Assembly (NCBI GenBank): GCA_041657665.1 | Contig: JBBABN010000001.1 | Span: forward strand, 2,355 to 66,354 | Source: Minisyncoccota bacterium | Lineage (GTDB): Bacteria > Patescibacteriota > Minisyncoccia > Phycocordibacterales > Phycocordibacteraceae | Direction of reading: 5' to 3' | DNA length: 64,000 nucleotides | Shown here: positions 3,886-38,731 of the stretch, piece by piece | Layout of the letters: each line of letters begins with the position of its first letter | How positions within the stretch are numbered: position 1 is the stretch's first letter | Position numbers and translations under genes: made by a program | Notes under the pieces: generated by a model | What the model was told of the DNA's origin: nothing | Databases searched by the model: none | What the model saw: the letters and a program-made list of their open reading frames with translations, nothing else

Positions 3886-4590
3886 ATGCTACCTTCACCT
3901 GTTTTAGTGTTAATCGCCACACTCAGTATTGTTACTGTCCTGCTTCTCATGAGGCCGCGACGATTCTATATCGTCCGTCACGGCGAAACACTTTCGAATA
4001 AACAACACATTCGCCAAGGTATAGAAGGTGCTCTTTCAGAGAAGGGCCGGCATCAAGCAGATCAAACAGGCCGAGCGCTCGAACACCTTTCTATTTCAAG
4101 CATTATTTCAAGCACATATCCGCGAGCAAAAGAGACAGCTGTAATTATAAATACTCACCTTAAGGTTCCTGTACGGTATTCCCCTCTTCTTGGCGAGAGA
4201 CGTAATCCTTCTGAAATTATCGGGAAGAATAGAGACGAGCCCGAGGTTTCTCACATCATCGATCAGATGGATCTCTCGTATCACGGCGATAATTATCGCT
4301 TCTCTGACGAAGAAAACTTTGCTGACCTGAAGAAGCGAGCACGGAAATGTCTCGCACTTCTCTCGCGTCAAGGAACGCGAAATACTTGTGTCGTAACACA
4401 TCACGTATTCCTTAAAATGTTACTCGCCTATATGCTTCATCGCGAACGATTACACGCCGCTGACTTTGCGAAGCTCTCGTTTTTTAATATCTCTGATAAC
4501 GCAGGTATCTCTATTTGTGAATTCCATCCGTGGAAGATGTTCTCGCCCACCCGCGGCTGGAAGGTCGTGAGTTTCAACGAAACACCCTAA
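3886..4590 (+). CDS. Histidine phosphatase family protein (phosphoglycerate mutase-like)
   Basis: Contains the RHGET catalytic motif (IVRHGETLSN) followed by GxxxxQG, typical of histidine phosphatase superfamily branch 1. Confidence 0.7.
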   Translation: MLPSPVLVLIATLSIVTVLLLMRPRRFYIVRHGETLSNKQHIRQGIEGALSEKGRHQADQTGRALEHLSISSIISSTYPRAKETAVIINTHLKVPVRYSPLLGERRNPSEIIGKNRDEPEVSHIIDQMDLSYHGDNYRFSDEENFADLKKRARKCLALLSRQGTRNTCVVTHHVFLKMLLAYMLHRERLHAADFAKLSFFNISDNAGISICEFHPWKMFSPTRGWKVVSFNETP

Positions 4591-4658
4591 GCATTCGCAT
4601 TCCGACATCCGATGTCCTCGTACATTTGAACATCGGATGTCCATACCTATTGCATTTA

Positions 4659-4698
4659 AAGGTTCGACCTTGAGAATTCGGATTTAAGGTCGAACCTT
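4659..4698. terminator. Bidirectional hairpin between convergent genes (AAGGTTCGACCTT...AAGGTCGAACCTT)
   Basis: 13-bp perfect inverted repeat with a 14-nt loop, lying between the ends of convergent ORFs 3886..4590 (+) and 4709..7741 (-). Confidence 0.6.
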
Positions 4699-4708
4699 GT
4701 TGAATACC

Positions 4709-7700
4709 TCAACGGGCTGAGTTAATCGCCGCTCTAGTAAGCGGCCCGAAATATCCCACAGCCGGTGTGATGTTGTTCGCCTTCTGGAATCTGATAAGAG
4801 CGGCCTTGGTCAATGCACCAAATTTGGTTGTTTCATTTCCTGGTGAACCTGGACCGCTCTCCGCAAGAATGAAGCCATGGGTGTTAAGGAACTGTTGGAG
4901 TTTTTGTACATCAGTACCGGTGGTGTTTAGTTTCAGATCGCGAGCAAACCCGGTTTGTGAGCTTGTCGAACCCGTCGAGGGGGTGAAAGATGAAGTGGAA
5001 ACTGTTGAAGTTGTAATCGTTTCTCCCAAGAGAGCGGCTTGTACCTTCGCTATAGTATTGGCATCAACGCCGAAGGAAGCGAGGACAGCGAGAATGGAAG
5101 ATACTTGTACAGAAGAAAGGGGGCTTGCCCCGCGAAGCTCTCCTTCCGAGGAGAGCGAAGTGGGGGTAGTAGTGGCAACAACAGGAGTGACGCGGGGATA
5201 GGTGTGAGAGAACCCACAACCTATAGTGAAGGTCTGGGTGTTGGAGTTGGTACTGTTGTCATTGTTGTCGAGGGCCTTGATGTACCACGAGTGTGTATTA
5301 GAGCAAGAGATAGAGGTTGGAACAGAGACCGAGGTGTCGGAAGTGCTCCCGATAAGGGTGTCATCGATATAGAGCTCATAGGGAGCAAGACCTGATTCAG
5401 TGTCAGAAGAAGCGGTCCAAGAGAGGGTGCCTCCTTTCGAGATGCCGTCATTGTTAGCTGGGGCGGTTAGAGAGAAAGATGCGGGAGCGGTCGTGTCTTT
5501 GGTGAGGGCGAAGGTGTGGGTTGAATACCCGCCGACATAGGTGAAGGTGAGGGAGCCGTCAGCGTCGGACTTGCAGATGCCGTTGGTACATTGGCTGTTG
5601 TTGGTGATGGCGGTGGTAGAGGCAGAGGAGTCGAGGTTGAATGTGTAGTATGTGGAGGGGGTGAGATCGCCGATGGTATAGACGGTGCTGGTGGCGTGGG
5701 TGTTAAAGGCGGCGATACTGGAGGTTGCGGTCCACTGTTTGTTCTTGGTGCCGGATGTGAGCCAAGAATCAATGGTGATGTCCATATATTGCGAAGTGGA
5801 GGCGGTATAGAAGCCGTCCACGGGAGTGACGGAGAAGTTGGCAGCTGGAATGGTGGTGGCAGTGGTGGTGGCGACGAGAGCGCGATACTTGTTGTCGGAA
5901 TAGATGCGGATGGAACCGCTCGTTGGTACTGGAGTTGTTCCCACTGTGTATGGCGGTTGATATTCGTATGCGCCGATGTCTGGGGTGCCGTATATTGAGT
6001 TGCCGGCATAGTCGGTGGTTAATGAGACGTCAGTACCAGCATCAATCGCCGGAGAAAGATACGAGAGTTGAAAATCGGTGACAGCAGTATAATTACCTGT
6101 AGCATTTACAAAAAGAGGATCGGAATTATTACTGTTTAGTTCGTTGGCAGAATGGTAGGTTGCCCATGATGTGTTATTGCTATTATCATCTGTGTTATAA
6201 AATTTACTATCATCAAAAGGTTTGTATAAATTATAGTCAAATGTTGTATAAGATGAATGTCTGTTTAATATCTCTCGCGGCTTACCGTTTCCACCTAAAA
6301 TACCATTCTGTACTGTTAAATTACCGCTAGGTTTGTTGTAATAATTATTACCTCTAATCGATGCAGTTATTACTGTACTTTCTTTAAAAAGATCTCCAAC
6401 AGCATATCCATTTGACCAACCAATAGAATTATAAAAATAATTCGTGCCGTCGGAAACATCTCCAAATCCCTCATTATAATTATGATGAGCTATACAATAA
6501 TAACATTTTATATTTGTCGTAGAATCATGAGGCAAAAAACCCCCGCCATCAGATGTTTCGTTAACTGTTCCATTATAAGAGGCTTCACTATTCAAATATA
6601 TTATATCACTGGCTGATGCCGAAGAAAGGAATCCAATATTATTATTATTATTAGCCATACAATTATTATAAGTTATATTATACGATGTGCCTCTCGCAAC
6701 AAACCCGTTCATAGAATTATGATTCGCCGAAACACTATTATATGTAATGTCGTGGGTCGCTCCCATTAATTCAAAAGCACCATAGGCAGTAGAGTTGCTC
6801 ATACTGCTATCGTCTACCACAATATTTGATGAATCGGTAAAACTAAATCCTGCGCCGGATGATCCTGTGATATTACTAATGGTACCAGTAGCAACATTAT
6901 TTAAAGCAATTCCTGTTAATGTCGAATTAGTTATTGTTAAATTTAAGCCGGTATTTATAGAAATTAATGTCGATGTCGAATTGGTTATTGTTAAATTTGC
7001 AGCATTACTTATAAGTAAGTCGCCAGTATTAATAACTGAATTTTGTAAAGTTATATTATCATTGCCCGTACCAGTAAAACTCATAGCTTTTTTTGTTGGT
7101 CCGCTATTTGTTAGCACCACATTATCAATAACTATATTATTCAAAATACTGTCGGACCATATATTATATCCATAGCCCCCCATATCGCTGGTAATATTAT
7201 TAAATTTAATATTAGAGCCTGCCCCTATGAGTATTCCTATAGTCGAAACTGTTGTCCCTGTATATTGGCAAGAAAATCCTTGAACTATAATATTAGATTT
7301 GCCGTTGGTACTTATTAGATAGCCAGAAGCAACAACAATCGCAGGAGTTTCGTTCGGCACATTCGCATAGGTAATTTCAGTGTCAACGCCGGAACCTCCC
7401 GACGGAAGGATTAAAATTTCTGTGTAATTTCCACCTTGTGAACTGAAAAGAATTTGATCACCATCTCCAAAAGTTGCGAGTTTTACTTGAGCCATGTTCA
7501 AAGAGGTACCGACTGCGTTAGGGCTTGTTGCATTCGCTTTATTAGCCGCGGTCACCGTCCCATCTGCCCGCACATAATACGTCGTTGCACTCGCCTGCCC
7601 TATTCCAATAAACAAAAAACTTCCTGAAAGAATTAGAAAGAATGCAATGAAGCGAACATTTTTGTTGAAAAAATTGGGGCTATTTACTCTCTCTCTCTCT

Positions 7701-7741
7701 CTCTCTCGTTTCGGCTGTGCTAATTTGAGTGTTTTTATCAT
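4709..7741 (-). CDS. Large secreted/surface protein with parallel beta-helix-like repeats and a C-terminal peptidoglycan-binding (PG_binding_1-like) domain
   Basis: 1010 aa with an N-terminal hydrophobic signal-like segment. Has long N/T/S-rich repeats (NITLQNSVINTGDLL...LTITNSTSTL) typical of a pectate-lyase-like beta-helix. The C-terminus LQQFLNTHGF...FGALTKAALIRFQKANNITPAVGYFGPLTRAAIN matches the PG-binding helical bundle motif. Confidence 0.65.
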   Translation of the reverse strand: MIKTLKLAQPKRERERERVNSPNFFNKNVRFIAFFLILSGSFLFIGIGQASATTYYVRADGTVTAANKANATSPNAVGTSLNMAQVKLATFGDGDQILFSSQGGNYTEILILPSGGSGVDTEITYANVPNETPAIVVASGYLISTNGKSNIIVQGFSCQYTGTTVSTIGILIGAGSNIKFNNITSDMGGYGYNIWSDSILNNIVIDNVVLTNSGPTKKAMSFTGTGNDNITLQNSVINTGDLLISNAANLTITNSTSTLISINTGLNLTITNSTLTGIALNNVATGTISNITGSSGAGFSFTDSSNIVVDDSSMSNSTAYGAFELMGATHDITYNSVSANHNSMNGFVARGTSYNITYNNCMANNNNNIGFLSSASASDIIYLNSEASYNGTVNETSDGGGFLPHDSTTNIKCYYCIAHHNYNEGFGDVSDGTNYFYNSIGWSNGYAVGDLFKESTVITASIRGNNYYNKPSGNLTVQNGILGGNGKPREILNRHSSYTTFDYNLYKPFDDSKFYNTDDNSNNTSWATYHSANELNSNNSDPLFVNATGNYTAVTDFQLSYLSPAIDAGTDVSLTTDYAGNSIYGTPDIGAYEYQPPYTVGTTPVPTSGSIRIYSDNKYRALVATTTATTIPAANFSVTPVDGFYTASTSQYMDITIDSWLTSGTKNKQWTATSSIAAFNTHATSTVYTIGDLTPSTYYTFNLDSSASTTAITNNSQCTNGICKSDADGSLTFTYVGGYSTHTFALTKDTTAPASFSLTAPANNDGISKGGTLSWTASSDTESGLAPYELYIDDTLIGSTSDTSVSVPTSISCSNTHSWYIKALDNNDNSTNSNTQTFTIGCGFSHTYPRVTPVVATTTPTSLSSEGELRGASPLSSVQVSSILAVLASFGVDANTIAKVQAALLGETITTSTVSTSSFTPSTGSTSSQTGFARDLKLNTTGTDVQKLQQFLNTHGFILAESGPGSPGNETTKFGALTKAALIRFQKANNITPAVGYFGPLTRAAINSAR
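7687..7707. repeat. (CT)10.5 dinucleotide microsatellite inside the 5' coding end of the surface-protein gene
   Basis: ctctctctctctctctctctc is visible at 7687..7707. On the coding (minus) strand it is (GA)n encoding RERERER at residues 12-18 of the ORF that begins at 7741. Confidence 0.9.
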
Positions 7742-7843
7742 ACATATTTGATGCTCCTATAGTACAGGATAGCACGTGTTACAAGAAGCTGGATGTGGAC
7801 AACCTTTCTGTTGTGCATACTGCATACTGGGTATGCACATGAT

Positions 7844-9775
7844 TTAAATAATTTCTTTATCCTGTGAAGCTTCAGCGAAGCAGGACGCGCTATTGGTCTC
7901 ATCAAATACCATGAGAGATGAATCGATATCAGCGAGGAATGACGATGGCTCAGCGAGAGAATCACTCCCGTAGATCTTTCGAATGCGCGCGAGGGTTAAG
8001 AAAAGGCGTGATTTTGCGCGCGTCATCGCCACATAAAAGAGTCGTCGCTCTTCTTCATCATCTCTCTTGGTATCATTCCCCATAGCACTGTGCGGAAAGA
8101 GCCCTTCTTCCATACCACTCACGAATACCGTGTCGAATTCAAGACCTTTTTATGCATGGACCGTCATCAGAGTCACGCCCTTCTTATCATTCTGATCGAG
8201 TTCGTCCTGATCACTCGCGAGAGCGGCATCCGCGAGAAATGCCGAAATGCCTTCTTTCCCAATAGCCGCATCATGCCGCGCAGCGACCGAAGCGAGTTCT
8301 TCTATATTTTCAAATCGTTCCCGATCTTCATCATTCCCCTCTTCGACTAATGCGCGACGTAACCCGCTTTTTTCTATAACAAGCTTCACGAATTCAGATG
8401 GTGCGAGCGTTTCTGCGCCCTGTGCAAGCTCTGCTATAACACCTTCAAAAGTTTCAACCTTCGCGATTTCGCCCGCACGAAGCTCGCTGCGCTTCCCTGC
8501 TGCGAGCTTACCAAGTGTTACCTTACCGATACCGCGCGACGGCGAAGCTGCTGCACGAAGTTTGTCGACTTCTCTCGAAGGATCGAGCGCGAGTCGCATC
8601 CACGCGAGCGCATCTTTCACTTCTTTTCTCGCGAAGAAATGTGTCCCGAGCAATTTATACGGCACACCAGCTTTCAATAATCCTTCTTCGAGCGCTCGCG
8701 ACTGGAAGTTAGTACGAAAAAGTAGTGCGATTTCTTCTGGCTTCGCGCCATTCTTCATTAATTCTCGGATCTTCAGCGCGATCCAACGTGCCTCATCTTC
8801 AGCATTAATCGCGAAGTGCACGACAATTGGCTCACCCGCAGGATGTTCGGTCGTCGAATATCGTTCTTTACGGTTTTTATTTTTCTCGATGACGGCGTTT
8901 GCCGCATCAACTAGATTTTTTGTCGAACGATAATTACGTTCGAGAATAATCGTCTGTGCTGCAGAATATTTTTTCTCAAAATTTAAAATGTTTTCCATCT
9001 TTGCGCCGCGCCATCCGTAAATCGCTTGATCACCATCACCAACAACAAAAAGATTGTTGTGTTTTTCAGAGAGAATGCGAGCGAGTCGCTCCTGTAATCC
9101 ATTTGTATCTTGATATTCATCGATACTAATAGAGCTCCAACGAGCTTGTGCAAGCGCACGGATATCAGCATGTTCTTCGAGTAGCTGTACCGGAAGCGAA
9201 ATAAGATCATCGAAGTCGAGCGACTTCTCTTCTTTCAGAGTTTTCTCATAGCGAAGCCATACTTCTGCGGTAATACGAGAACCGAAACTTCCACGACCCT
9301 GTTTTTCATAGAATTCACTCGCGCGCATTCCCTCACCTTTCGCACGCGAGATGCGGCCCATAATTGCACGTGGAGAAAATTCCTTCGATTCCACATCAAG
9401 CGCTTTCAATGCGGTAGCAATTACTCTTTCTGAATCGGCACGATCATAGATACTAAAGAATTTCGAGACGCCTATCTCACTTCCATAACTCTCCAGAATC
9501 TCGCGCCCAAGCCCGTGGAAAGTAGCAATAAAAGGAAGGGTCCCATCATCCTCGAGCATAGTGCGGACTCGTGCACGCATCTCGCGTGCCGCTTTATTAG
9601 TGAAGGTGACCGCGAGAATCTGATTCGCCGGCACCCCAGAGCGAATCAGATGATAAATTCGCGTCGTGAGCACGCGCGTTTTCCCGCTTCCAGCACCCGC
9701 AAGAACCAAGACCGGACCATCGATAGCGAGTACTGCTCGTTTCTGAGCTTCATTCAATCCTTCAAGGTATTTCAC
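7844..9775 (-). pseudogene. uvrD: UvrD/PcrA-family DNA helicase interrupted by an in-frame TAA (fragments 8150..9775 and 7844..8149)
   Basis: The N-terminal fragment has Walker A AGAGSGKTRVLT. The reading frame continues in the same frame across a TAA at 8150-8152 as ...[29 protein letters not shown]..., which is the conserved UvrD motif V/VI region (consensus ...TLHSAKGLEF...). Confidence 0.8.
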
Positions 9776-13322: not shown

Positions 13323-14648
13323 TTATTGTGCGCGAGAAGAAGCAAGTCGGAGCATAAGTTCAGAAAAGACTGACGGGTCGCGCGCGATAACAAGTGTTGA
13401 CTGATTCCAGTAGCCGTAGAGAAGAACGCTTTGATTCTTATCATCACGATAGACGCGAACATCGTGATTATTAATCACTTCATCACGAAAGCCAGGAATA
13501 AATATAGGAGTCGATGAAGTCGCTACTGCAGTAGTTGTCGTCGATGTCTTCATTACACTTTTTGATGTCGTCGTTGCTTGAGTCGATGTTGCTACTGTAG
13601 TCGTCGCAACAGCAGGTGTTGTTGATGCTATAGCAATGGCCGGAGCGACGACAAGCGGTTCGTTATAAGGAGAGAAAAGTGCTCCAAGATCGCGCCTCAT
13701 TAAAGGTTCCCAAGAAAGCATACCTGAAAAAGTGTCACTGTACGAAGCAACTGAGAGTATGAAAAATGGACTTTGATTCCCATTGTTATTCACGATACCA
13801 GCCATACTGTCCGAAGCATGTATGTTACGCAAGAGAATATTAGGAGCAGGGATCTGAAGTGCAGAAAAAACACTATTGTCTGTTGTAGTTGCATTCTCTG
13901 TATAGAGAAGTCGCACAGTATTAAGAGCGAGAGGACGATCAATCGACTGTTCGATCGCCGATAATAAAACAGCTCCTGTTCCAGAAATTTTTTCATCTTC
14001 TTCAACAAAGATCGGCGCAGGAATAGTTGGAGCAAGAATAATTGGAGCTATTACTGTTGAATAATTTGTGTAGACGAAATACACACCAAAACCACCAGCA
14101 ATAAGTAGTGCCACGCCAGCCAAAATATACAGAAGACCGCCACGCGAAGAGTTAGATTCTCTTTCGGGTTCGGTCTTTTGTGGTGCCGCATCTTGTTCTG
14201 CAGCGAGTACAGTTGCTGTTGAGGCATGTGACTCCTTCATGTGATCAGAAAAATCACTTTCGTATGTCTTGAGTGGTGCGGGTGTTGGTTCTGGTGCCGG
14301 CTCAGGTTCGGGAACTGGCTCAGGAGCAGGAGTTGGAATAGGGGGCGGTTCATTCTTCATTATTGGAATAGATAATGGAGAAAACGACACATGCCCAACA
14401 TTCGATGAAGGTATTGTAGAAGGAACAACCGATGATGTAGTTGGCGGTTCAACTGGTTTTGTCACAGGAGTTGCAGACGATTTTACTTCTTGAAGTGGCA
14501 CCAGATCTGGAGTACCTCCTTTTTTAATCGTCGCCATATCACCCTCAAAGGTGCGAATATATTTTTTTGGCATTTCACGATTCCCTTCTACTATTTTTGA
14601 AGAAGGATCGGGAATTGGTGTATTCGATGCAGCTAGTGGTGTGTCCAT
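13323..14648 (-). CDS. Hypothetical membrane-anchored protein with a proline-rich linker (PEPVPEPEPAPEPTPAP) and one TM helix
   Basis: 441-aa ORF with one clear TM segment (LLYILAGVALLIAGGFGVYFVY). No recognisable enzyme motif. Confidence 0.45.
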   Translation of the reverse strand: MDTPLAASNTPIPDPSSKIVEGNREMPKKYIRTFEGDMATIKKGGTPDLVPLQEVKSSATPVTKPVEPPTTSSVVPSTIPSSNVGHVSFSPLSIPIMKNEPPPIPTPAPEPVPEPEPAPEPTPAPLKTYESDFSDHMKESHASTATVLAAEQDAAPQKTEPERESNSSRGGLLYILAGVALLIAGGFGVYFVYTNYSTVIAPIILAPTIPAPIFVEEDEKISGTGAVLLSAIEQSIDRPLALNTVRLLYTENATTTDNSVFSALQIPAPNILLRNIHASDSMAGIVNNNGNQSPFFILSVASYSDTFSGMLSWEPLMRRDLGALFSPYNEPLVVAPAIAIASTTPAVATTTVATSTQATTTSKSVMKTSTTTTAVATSSTPIFIPGFRDEVINNHDVRVYRDDKNQSVLLYGYWNQSTLVIARDPSVFSELMLRLASSRAQ

Positions 14649-15204: not shown

Positions 15205-15334
15205 ATAAATAAATTACGTATGAAAACAAAATAATAAAATGTAGCTCCCGCATCGGGACTCCGACGGGAGTGCTACTTCTTCATACTACCACTTCCTTTC
15301 TTACACCTTATCCCTTGCACCTTAAACCTCCTTT

Positions 15335-22046: not shown

Positions 22047-23258
22047 ATGGAGCCGCTCGCTGCACAAATACGACCGAAGACGCTTCAAGAAGTTGTCGGA
22101 CAAGAACATTTGGTAGGCGAAGGGAAGCCCTTGCGCGTCGCAGTAGAAAAGAAACATAAGTTCTCTTTTGTTCTCTGGGGGCCGCCCGGGACAGGGAAGA
22201 CGACTATTGCGCGCATTTATGCGCGCGCGCTTGATGCAGAACTATTTGAACTCTCGGCGGTATCGGCAGGGAAGGACGATATTAGAAAGTTGTTAGGCGC
22301 AAGGGATAAGGTGCAAGGAAATTCGCTTAAACCTTACACCTTGAACCTTAAACCTAAAGTATTGTTTCTCGACGAGATTCATCGTTTTAATAAAAGCCAG
22401 CAGGATTTTCTCTTGCCCTATGTCGAGAGCGGAGAATTAACCCTCATCGGCGCAACGACGGAGAATCCTTCATTTGAAATTATCGCGCCCCTTCTCTCGC
22501 GCTGTCGCGTATTCGTCTTAGAGCCTCTTTCTGAAGAAGCCCTCCGCGCGATTGTTAAAAGAACAAAACTGAAAGTGAAGAAAGACGCTTTTGAATGGCT
22601 TTTGGGTTATGCGGGCGGGGACGCACGCAGGGCACTTGGGATGATGGAAGGTGCACAAAGTTTATATGGGGAGGTTACTATCGAATCCCTTACTAAAGCG
22701 CTCGAATCGCCCCATCTGCACTACGACAAGAAAGGCGAAGAACACTACGACACTATCAGTGCGTTTATTAAAAGCATGCGCGCTTCGCAGGCAGATGCGG
22801 CGATTTATTATTTGGCGCGAATGGTCGAAGCGGGAGAAGATCCGCTCTTTATCGCACGACGAATGGTTATCTTCGCCTCAGAAGATGTGGGACTCGCCCA
22901 GCCGACAGCGCTCGTAGTCGCGAATGCCGTCTTTCGTGCCTGCGAGACCATCGGCTATCCTGAATGTGCGATTAATCTCGCACACGGAGTCGCGTATCTC
23001 GCACAAGCGAAGAAAGATCGTTCTACTTATGATGCGCTTCGTGGCGCACAAGCTGACGTGCATGCCTACGGCAACTTGCCGGTACCGAAGAAAATACGAA
23101 ATGCTGTCACAAAACTTATGAAAGACCTCGACTATGGAAAGGGGTACGAGAAATACCCCTCGACTCCCTTCGACGATGCTCAAGGTAAACCGCTCGGGGC
23201 AAGTGAACCAGAATCATACTTGCCGGACAAATTGAAGAAAAAGAAGTACTTAAAATAA
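22047..23258 (+). CDS. rarA: Replication-associated recombination protein A (AAA+ ATPase RarA/MgsA)
   Basis: Walker [10 protein letters not shown], Walker B LFLDEIHRFNKSQQD, sensor and C-terminal MgsA helical domain (AIYYLARMVEAGEDPLFIARRM). Confidence 0.9.
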   Translation: MEPLAAQIRPKTLQEVVGQEHLVGEGKPLRVAVEKKHKFSFVLWGPPGTGKTTIARIYARALDAELFELSAVSAGKDDIRKLLGARDKVQGNSLKPYTLNLKPKVLFLDEIHRFNKSQQDFLLPYVESGELTLIGATTENPSFEIIAPLLSRCRVFVLEPLSEEALRAIVKRTKLKVKKDAFEWLLGYAGGDARRALGMMEGAQSLYGEVTIESLTKALESPHLHYDKKGEEHYDTISAFIKSMRASQADAAIYYLARMVEAGEDPLFIARRMVIFASEDVGLAQPTALVVANAVFRACETIGYPECAINLAHGVAYLAQAKKDRSTYDALRGAQADVHAYGNLPVPKKIRNAVTKLMKDLDYGKGYEKYPSTPFDDAQGKPLGASEPESYLPDKLKKKKYLK

Positions 23259-23300: not shown

Positions 23301-23332
23301 CTTAAACCTTACACCTTACCGCTTACACCTAT

Positions 23333-38686: not shown

Positions 38687-38731
38687 TGCATTTAATCTTA
38701 CAACTTATACCTTATACCTTACAACTGCTTT

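Follow-up and report, generated by a model that had tools for sequence, protein, structure and literature searches.

Phase variation through simple-sequence repeats (SSRs) is characteristic of pathogens and commensals that have small genomes and are adapted to a host, among them Neisseria, Haemophilus, Helicobacter, Campylobacter and Mycoplasma. The opa genes of Neisseria carry CTCTT pentamer repeats in the signal-peptide-coding region and form a multigene family whose members switch independently, while in lic1 (licA) of Haemophilus influenzae CAAT repeats are located downstream of alternative ATGs in different frames. Homopolymers also act in promoter spacers, as the poly-C/G of Neisseria opc and porA and the poly-A of Mycoplasma hyorhinis vlp. 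Among the outer membrane protein (OMP) genes of Helicobacter pylori, hopZ and sabA have 5' CT repeats. In the H. pylori gene oipA, CT repeats in the 5' signal-peptide-coding region give rise to on and off alleles by a slipped-strand mechanism (PMC10564699). Here a similar tract was analyzed in a 64-kb stretch of DNA from a Minisyncoccota bacterium (contig JBBABN010000001.1), which is called the window and whose coordinates are used throughout; the tract, at 7687-7707, is located near the 5' end of the gene of a predicted secreted beta-helix protein (the window gene, open reading frame (ORF) 7741..4709, minus strand). We consider it likely that this tract is a functional contingency switch which acts on translation by slipped-strand mispairing. 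The analogy to a classical switch was drawn from a perfect SSR, an intragenic position at which the frame would be shifted, intact OFF alleles, repeat polymorphism at homologues and a predicted surface or secreted product. The elements of the locus were as follows.

7707-7687, minus strand: (GA)10G simple-sequence repeat, (CT)10.5 on the plus strand, the proposed slippage site.
7739..7741, minus strand: ATG-1, in the body frame at 10 units and the first start past the in-frame stop 7759-7757.
7743..7745, minus strand: ATG-2, overlapping ATG-1 as ATGTATG in a different frame.
7680..7686, minus strand: TAAATAG frame trap directly 3' of the tract, composed of TAA 7686-7684 and TAG 7682-7680.
7754..7761, minus strand: TATAGGAG, readable as a -10-like TATAGG (7761-7756) or a Shine-Dalgarno (SD)-like AGGAG (7758-7754).
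7586..7741, minus strand: predicted Sec-type signal peptide, residues 1-52, with a long n-region that holds the tract, a hydrophobic region (h-region) and an A-S-A cleavage motif.
7741..4709, minus strand: the whole gene, 1010 amino acids, with a predicted beta-helix (residues about 53-390), beta-sandwich modules (about 600-840) and a PG_binding_1 C-terminus.

The tract was found by Tandem Repeats Finder with period 2, 10.5 copies and 100% matches, and direct reading was concordant, in agreement with the perfect 21-nucleotide (nt) CT tract described in the first-pass annotation of this DNA. It makes up codons 12-18 of the window gene, CGA GAG AGA GAG AGA GAG AGA, its final G being the first base of codon 19 (GTA). 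The N-terminus of the protein reads MIKTLKLAQPK-RERERER-VNSPNFFNKNVR-FIAFFLILSGSFLFIGIG-QASA/TTYYVRADG (slash, predicted cleavage site), with the h-region at F31-G48 (7651-7598); the placement of RERERER between the start codon and the hydrophobic segment, also claimed earlier, was correct, since the tract lies between ATG 7741 and F31-G48. At 21 nt the tract was the longest dinucleotide run in the window; in 200 first-order Markov simulations the longest runs averaged 9.6 nt and never exceeded 13. The runner-up dinucleotide runs in the 64 kb had 5 units, and no G/C run of 8 or more was present in the window. The tract is uninterrupted, longer than expected by chance and in the length range known to slip, and because it is intragenic and its unit length is not divisible by 3, a change of one unit shifts the frame. 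As in the H. pylori OMP genes, a CT/GA tract is located in the first codons of a gene for a surface or secreted protein, and several tract-bearing paralogues occur per genome. Different from H. pylori, whose products are beta-barrel OMPs, the protein here is an unrelated, predicted beta-helix with a peptidoglycan-binding domain, the organism is no human pathogen but an environmental, ultra-small member of Paceibacterota, the tract is flanked by an additional ATG in another frame and by the TAAATAG double stop, and the switching proposed here was deduced from sequence.

Both ATG 7741 and ATG 7745 open into the tract, so that start codons in two frames precede it. At 10 units ATG-2 encodes a 21-residue peptide, MYDKNTQISTAETRERERESK, which ends at TAG 7682-7680, and it would join the body frame at 11 units. 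Both non-body frames are closed within 7 nt past the tract, and the body frame reads through the trap as G-TA AAT AGC (V N S). During replication, the tract would gain or lose GA units and thereby shift the register between the upstream start codon or codons and the signal peptide with the mature protein. With 10 units, the sequenced state, ATG 7741 would be in frame and the full secreted beta-helix/peptidoglycan-binding protein would be made (ON). With 11 units, ATG 7745 would be in frame; the gene would again be ON, and the n-region removed by cleavage would differ. With 9 or 12 units neither ATG would be in frame, and translation would stop at the TAA or TAG no more than 7 nt past the tract, so that only some 20 residues would be made (OFF). 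A gain or loss of 3 units would keep the frame and add RER or ERE to the cleaved n-region or remove it. The dual ATGs and the alleles of the homologues indicate that two registers of the switch are probably ON and one OFF, which makes it more than a simple on/off device. The first-pass annotation had expected a one-unit change in either direction to switch the gene off, which would hold for a loss; a gain would bring ATG 7745 into frame. By analogy with the known systems, the tract would slip at a useful rate and ATG 7745 would be functional, cell lineages could stochastically vary which surface or secreted proteins of the family are displayed, and the selective agent would presumably be the host surface, phage or a predator.

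Starts in two frames before a repeat, by which two of the three registers would be translated and one would be off, are shared with lic1. The repeat of lic1 is a tetramer and its product a cytoplasmic enzyme of lipopolysaccharide decoration, whereas a secreted protein is predicted here; differential expression from the two ATGs was shown for lic1 and is proposed for the window gene. With Neisseria opa the locus shares the position of the repeat inside the leader-peptide coding sequence, so that the mature protein would be unchanged in the ON states, and the membership of a multigene family, while the pentamer of opa is replaced by a dinucleotide or homopolymer and fold and lineage differ.

The main competitor of the switch is a neutral or tolerated coding microsatellite, in which the charged RE stretch of the n-region expanded by chance and nothing is switched. 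The tract is in frame in the sole available copy of the window gene, which is intact, and the n-regions of the family are long and poorly conserved, with residues 1-31 of the window protein disordered in an AlphaFold2 model (16-sequence alignment). The distribution of tracts in the family argues differently. A profile scan of 185,579 species-representative genomes gave 75 loci with relatives, 444 kb in total, nearly all labelled Patescibacteria (Moraniibacteriota, Taylorbacteria, Nomurabacteria, Paceibacteria, Kaiserbacteria and others); the few labelled as other phyla may be mis-binned contigs. An SSR census of these loci returned 21 tracts, 20 of which were GA/CT dinucleotides (threshold 6 units, observed 6-18) or poly-G (threshold 10, observed 10-11). 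Every one of these 20 was found at the 5' end of a family gene that encodes a signal peptide: 18 belong to the coding leader and precede the h-region by 18-60 nt, and two (L008 and L050) fall in what appears to be a promoter spacer, flanked by -35-like and -10-like boxes. Tracts in L015, L019, L024, L026, L027 and L041 were added at lower thresholds.

A common cassette was recognized, in which one or more ATGs are followed by 8-15 codons, the SSR, off-frame stops, about 10 codons, the h-region, AxA and ATYYV. The junction A-x-A/(A/T)TYYV was invariant across the family alignment, including A52, Y55 and V57. GTA(A/G)ATA... follows the tract in GA-type loci and likewise in the window; the ON frame of these relatives, RERERV(N/D)xP, is the same as the RERERERVNSP frame of the window gene. 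TAAATAG or an equivalent follows the tract in L002, L006, L007, L009, L017, L024, L047 and L065. Both off frames were closed within 7 nt past the tract in 9 of 21 loci (window included), and at least one was closed within 8 nt in 20 of 21. ATGs in at least two frames and open into the tract were found in 10 of 22 loci, compared with 2.8 expected from shuffled leaders (P ~5e-5, a value that overstates independence since some of the loci are paralogues). Neither the stops directly past the tract nor the enrichment of dual-frame ATGs is accounted for by a neutral repeat. The first-pass annotation had proposed to look for the tract in orthologous genes; as protein sequence it was not conserved, while an equivalent SSR cassette heads many genes of the family.

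The frame states of these genes pointed in the same direction. Among 24 leader tracts in the genome loci, 10 were in frame with an upstream ATG (L002, L007, L017, L019, L022, L024, L026, L027, L047 and L065) and more than half, 14, were out of frame (L001, L005, L006, L009, L012, L015, L016, L029, L034, L035, L037, L041, L060 and L066). The out-of-frame genes were not decayed pseudogenes, because their body ORFs were open for 595-1445 codons (12 of the 14 measured). This mixture of ON and OFF is the pattern of consensus sequences of phase-variable genes and is unlike that of a merely tolerated coding repeat. The OFF-state genes were called with truncated signal peptides (P0008 MLFGLAGQANA..., P0010, P0019 MLRLALIFF..., and P0038-P0050), and therefore no RE or LS repeat was visible in the called homologues. 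Paralogues within one metagenome-assembled genome (MAG) had near-identical upstream regions and leaders and differed in repeat number: L012 (CT)9 OFF, L017 (TC)10 ON and L022 (TC)6 ON in JBAZCA01; L016 G10 OFF, L029 G11 OFF and L019 G9 ON in JBAZUL01; and L002 (GA)9, L047 (GA)10 and L024 with an interrupted tract in bin-188.

Additionally, a perfect palindrome of about 28 nt, GTAGAGACGCATTGCAATGCGTCTCTAC (variant GTAAAGACGC...GCGTCTTTAC), was observed in JBAZCA01 at L012 2951-2990, L017 1620-1660 and L022 1500-1540 and 1625-1665. It recurs before the leader ATG and within the leader just past the tract, and L017 and L022 have a near-identical 150-nt upstream region. The palindromes and the common upstream region suggest a mobile or recombining 5' cassette among the paralogues.

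Natural alleles with unit numbers that differ by other than multiples of 3, and together covering all three frames, were found at homologous cassettes, which is again not expected of a neutral coding repeat. The P0019 locus encodes a protein 44% identical to that of the window and is of the CT type, with the leader ATGAAAAAAGCGCATGAAATC-(CT)n-TAAATAG and two ATGs in different frames. Its DNA alleles were (CT)9 in L009, (CT)10 in L207-L210, (CT)14 in L211, (CT)18 in L006 and (CT)21 in L076; the (CT)10-encoded protein was present on at least 22 contigs, and a (CT)11 allele was implied by the protein P0041. With tracts of 9, 18 and 21 units neither ATG is in register with the body; the tract of 10 units is in frame with ATG-2 of this locus (MKSSLSL...), and those of 11 and 14 units are in frame with its ATG-1 (MKKAHEILSLS...). 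A single unit separates L009 from L207-L210, whose flanks match its own, and in the alignment of L006 with L076 (5.4 kb, 99.89% identity) no gap other than the tract is present. P0017, whose protein is 53% identical, has a GA-type tract as the window gene does. Its L212 allele, (GA)7G, is read from MLCFTNLF..., and its L213 allele, (GA)6G, from MREYFTDLICYV..., the same DNA in another frame; mismatches in their flanks numbered 0/110 and 4/1200. For P0002, the closest homologue (59%), six contigs had (GA)9 and three had (GA)7; the 150 nt upstream contained 0-2 mismatches and the 1500 nt downstream contained none. Considering these alleles together with the position of the tracts and the frame states, a neutral microsatellite is unlikely.

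As a separate observation, a Bro-N domain gene is located upstream of the P0019 locus (L207-L211) and, in some contigs, an rve-family integrase/transposase downstream, which hints at a mobile-element or prophage-like neighbourhood.

Several points weigh against the contingency switch. All length differences were obtained between consensus assemblies from different samples and not from reads within one population. The three OFF alleles of P0019 (9, 18 and 21 units) all fall in the same frame, in which translation might begin at a GTG immediately preceding the h-region, so that they may be weaker ON states; the window locus has no downstream start of this kind. At P0002 (L077-L086) the cassette is an orphan, with an ATG, 7 codons, (GA)7/9, GTAAAC, the beginning of an h-region and then a stop, located about 190-165 nt before the called ATG; a terminator-like hairpin (GACACCGTTTTTGCGGTG followed by T7) lies between them, and the gene has its own strong SD (GGAGGAGGA) and ATG. 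This cassette looks like a detached relic which is still mutating, and the locus indicates that tract variation can persist without controlling a gene. The choice of start is not predictable in a genome largely without SD sequences, and ATG 7745 is a putative start. Finally, repeat heterogeneity at the window locus is argued by analogy: the window protein is alone in its 90% cluster with its nearest relative 59% identical, and no second copy was found. The exact-product look-up returned no contig with the exact protein, a scan of metagenome contigs with the tract flanks GCACAGCCGAAAC-N{6,36}-TAAATAGCCCCAA gave 0 matches, and the species-representative genome collection held no genome of the same species, the best match being that 59% identical one. 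A metagenome scan with (GA)6GTARATA gave at least 120 loci, almost all eukaryote-like microsatellites, and no family cassette was recognized among the matches listed.

Two metagenome contigs, L184 (4139-4154) and L202 (2640-2657), contained an unrelated gene (...VNNPEFDHSSLHERDWKSYSISQIFDIRSG...) after CTGATGAAGCGCATCGCCTCCATC-(GA)8 or (GA)9-GTAAATAA, with the upstream ATG in frame in one contig and out of frame in the other. This looks like a GA-tract switch in another gene family and organism.

A second alternative places the tract in a 5' untranslated leader, where its length would tune transcription, mRNA stability or initiation instead of the frame. In those alleles of P0019 whose upstream ATGs are not in register with the body, the gene callers indeed fall back on the GTG that precedes the h-region, and the poly-G between -35-like and -10-like boxes in L008, L050 and L015 points to promoter-level control in part of the family. 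With G8-G10 in the spacer, this minority resembles the promoter-spacer switches of opc, porA and vlp, unlike the window locus, which is of the translational type. In the window no ATG, GTG or TTG was found in the body frame between the end of the tract (7687) and the start of the h-region (7651), and the next in-frame start, TTG 7615, is inside the h-region, so that its use would delete most of this region. Since no in-frame start precedes the h-region, the tract is coding and not untranslated if the protein is exported, which settles the question of alternative starts downstream of the repeat that the first-pass annotation had raised. The tract also begins 34 nt downstream of the first ATG, outside a -35/-10 spacer, and the -10-like box lies upstream of both ATGs. 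An untranslated tract at the window locus is therefore very unlikely. The spacer tracts of the family, as side observations, were poly-G or poly-C of 8-10 nt at L008 2928-2937, L050 968-977 and L015 2835-2873, and L015 combines its promoter tracts with a coding G9.

The role of TATAGGAG is ambiguous, because most window genes have no SD and have a TATAAT-like box 4-8 nt before the start. Its AGGAG is 8 nt before ATG 7745 and 12 nt before ATG 7741, and its TATAGG may instead be the -10 box of a short-leader mRNA. SD spacing was considered as an arbiter between the two ATGs and was dropped, since any SD-like core was present in only about 7 of 46 window genes. A scan for intrinsic terminators and promoters around the window gene gave weak consensus matches only, none of them usable. 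In the window as a whole, most ORFs of at least 150 amino acids were without an SD core, and many had a TATAAT-like hexamer 4-8 nt before the start (for example 8150-9775, 13323-14648, 32905, 40932, 41560, 49252 and 61421), which suggests leaderless or very short-leader mRNAs in the source organism.

As a third alternative, slippage of RNA polymerase or the ribosome could rescue the out-of-frame states, so that the tract would tune the level of expression and no heritable ON or OFF state would exist. Poly-G runs of 9-11 nt, which occur in several paralogues, are of a type able to support transcriptional slippage. Dinucleotide tracts are, to our knowledge, not substrates for efficient transcriptional realignment, the off frames end 3-7 nt past the tract and leave little room for ribosomal frameshifting, and DNA-level alleles exist naturally in all three frames, all of which make this rescue highly improbable. 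An assembly or sequencing artefact in the tract or its length, conceivable in that repeats are error-prone in short-read assemblies and one assembly covers the window locus, is scarcely credible, because 21 nt is far below read length, the gene reads through in frame, and equivalent tracts occur in dozens of assemblies that were made independently, in different projects and with different assemblers. The contingency switch acting on translation, proposed in the first-pass annotation as a candidate, gained support from the coding position of the tract, the family cassette and the frame-changing alleles at homologues.

The product of the window gene was predicted to be large and exported, in line with the cell-surface protein with a beta-helix body and a peptidoglycan-binding C-terminus that had been suggested earlier; the Pfam, AlphaFold and Foldseek results, all predictions, agreed on this. 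PG_binding_1 was matched at residues 941-1006 (nt 4724-4921, E=2.8e-10, Pfam), and the Beta_helix match was sub-threshold. In the AlphaFold2 model, the h-region formed a helix (27-42), the beta-helix covered residues about 53-390 with a predicted local distance difference test (pLDDT) score of about 90, and the beta-sandwich modules were followed by a helical C-terminal domain. A sequence search of the PDB with the window protein gave nothing at E 0.01 or better, and the fold was therefore assigned from the model. Foldseek against the PDB matched right-handed beta-helix, glycan-active enzymes (lacto-N-biosidase LnbX, mannuronan epimerase AlgE, GH87 glucanase and the polysaccharide lyase RbmB), as well as phage tailspikes and the pneumococcal adhesin PfbA. 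The identical protein in NCBI is named 'MAG: peptidoglycan-binding domain-containing protein [Candidatus Paceibacterota bacterium]', and the source organism is known only from a MAG. The signal peptide with AxA, the beta-helix and PG_binding_1 together predict a surface or secreted product. The modelled fold suggests a glycan-binding or glycan-degrading protein, and PG_binding_1 suggests tethering to a cell wall, either its own or that of a host. By analogy, the protein could serve in host attachment or surface remodelling, or be a phage receptor.

The window gene forms a transcription unit of its own, preceded by about 400 non-coding nt, and its neighbours are ordinary chromosomal genes. A MacAB-like ABC exporter (HlyD, ABC, MacB/FtsX) and a histidine phosphatase are located on one flank, and uvrD, an M23/LysM peptidase and comM on the other. 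Immediately upstream, the uvrD-like helicase gene (7844-9775, minus strand) has an in-frame TAA at 8152-8150 within the conserved motif ...LMTVHA*KGLEFD..., past which the frame is open for about 100 more codons, to 7844; this may be a nonsense mutation or a pseudogene, or else a sequencing error. UvrD participates in mismatch repair, so that loss of uvrD could raise repeat slippage. Inside the window gene, the G+C content jumps from 37% in 6001-8000 (5' half) to 50% in 4001-6000 (3' half, skew +0.20), and the beta-helix and C-terminal modules could be of mosaic or recombinant origin. A 54-nt tandem repeat at 6891-7013 (2.3 copies, 73% matches) corresponds to successive beta-helix coils (...LTITNSTSTLISINTGLNLTITNSTLTG...). 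Elsewhere in the window, four tandem heptamer arrays of about 4 copies of CTTAxAC (CTTACAC/CTTAAAC/CTTATAC) were found on the plus strand at 15300-15329, 22326-22355, 23301-23330 and 38704-38721, one of which ends about 10 nt before ATG 38732 and another of which is inside ORF 22047-23258. The two-unit CTTAxAC pattern had 5 matches in the window compared with 0.05 expected, and the arrays may be a regulator binding site.

In the Candidate Phyla Radiation (CPR), diversity-generating retroelements are a known route to surface-protein variation. For a Gracilibacterium, a surface protein with a hypervariable in-frame 9-mer (PTD) repeat was described (PMC6851277), which was the nearest paper in our literature search and concerns a different phenomenon. 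The window locus resembles both as a route to surface-protein variation in CPR and differs from their in-frame variation or mutagenic retrohoming in being a frame-shifting 5' SSR with ON and OFF states. No paper linking phase variation, SSRs, slipped-strand mispairing or contingency loci to CPR/Patescibacteria was found in the full-text literature searched, which is incomplete, so that an earlier description is possible. The mechanism is classical; what appears to be new is the CPR/Patescibacteria lineage from groundwater and lakes, the secreted beta-helix gene family and the conserved cassette. On balance, we favour the view that the window locus is one case of an undescribed CPR-wide contingency system, in which a conserved 5' cassette (one ATG or two in different frames, a tract of GA/CT or poly-G, the double stop in the off frames and a signal peptide) would head numerous paralogous genes for secreted beta-helix proteins. 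Paceibacteria-type Patescibacteria of groundwater and lakes would carry several of them per genome.

If the cassette works as proposed, it would flag which of the large 'hypothetical' surface proteins of CPR face fluctuating selection and point to host-attachment molecules or phage receptors. It would also explain the truncated or N-terminally mis-called genes in CPR MAGs, of which those named above are examples, and the repeat-length spectra in existing metagenome reads would become a directly testable population-genetic readout of host or phage pressure on uncultured episymbionts of groundwater and lakes. A CPR-wide system would be the first reported SSR phase variation in this radiation and one working outside animal hosts, and it would give ultra-small episymbionts a combinatorial, heritable yet reversible variation of their repertoire of glycan-binding or glycan-degrading surface proteins.

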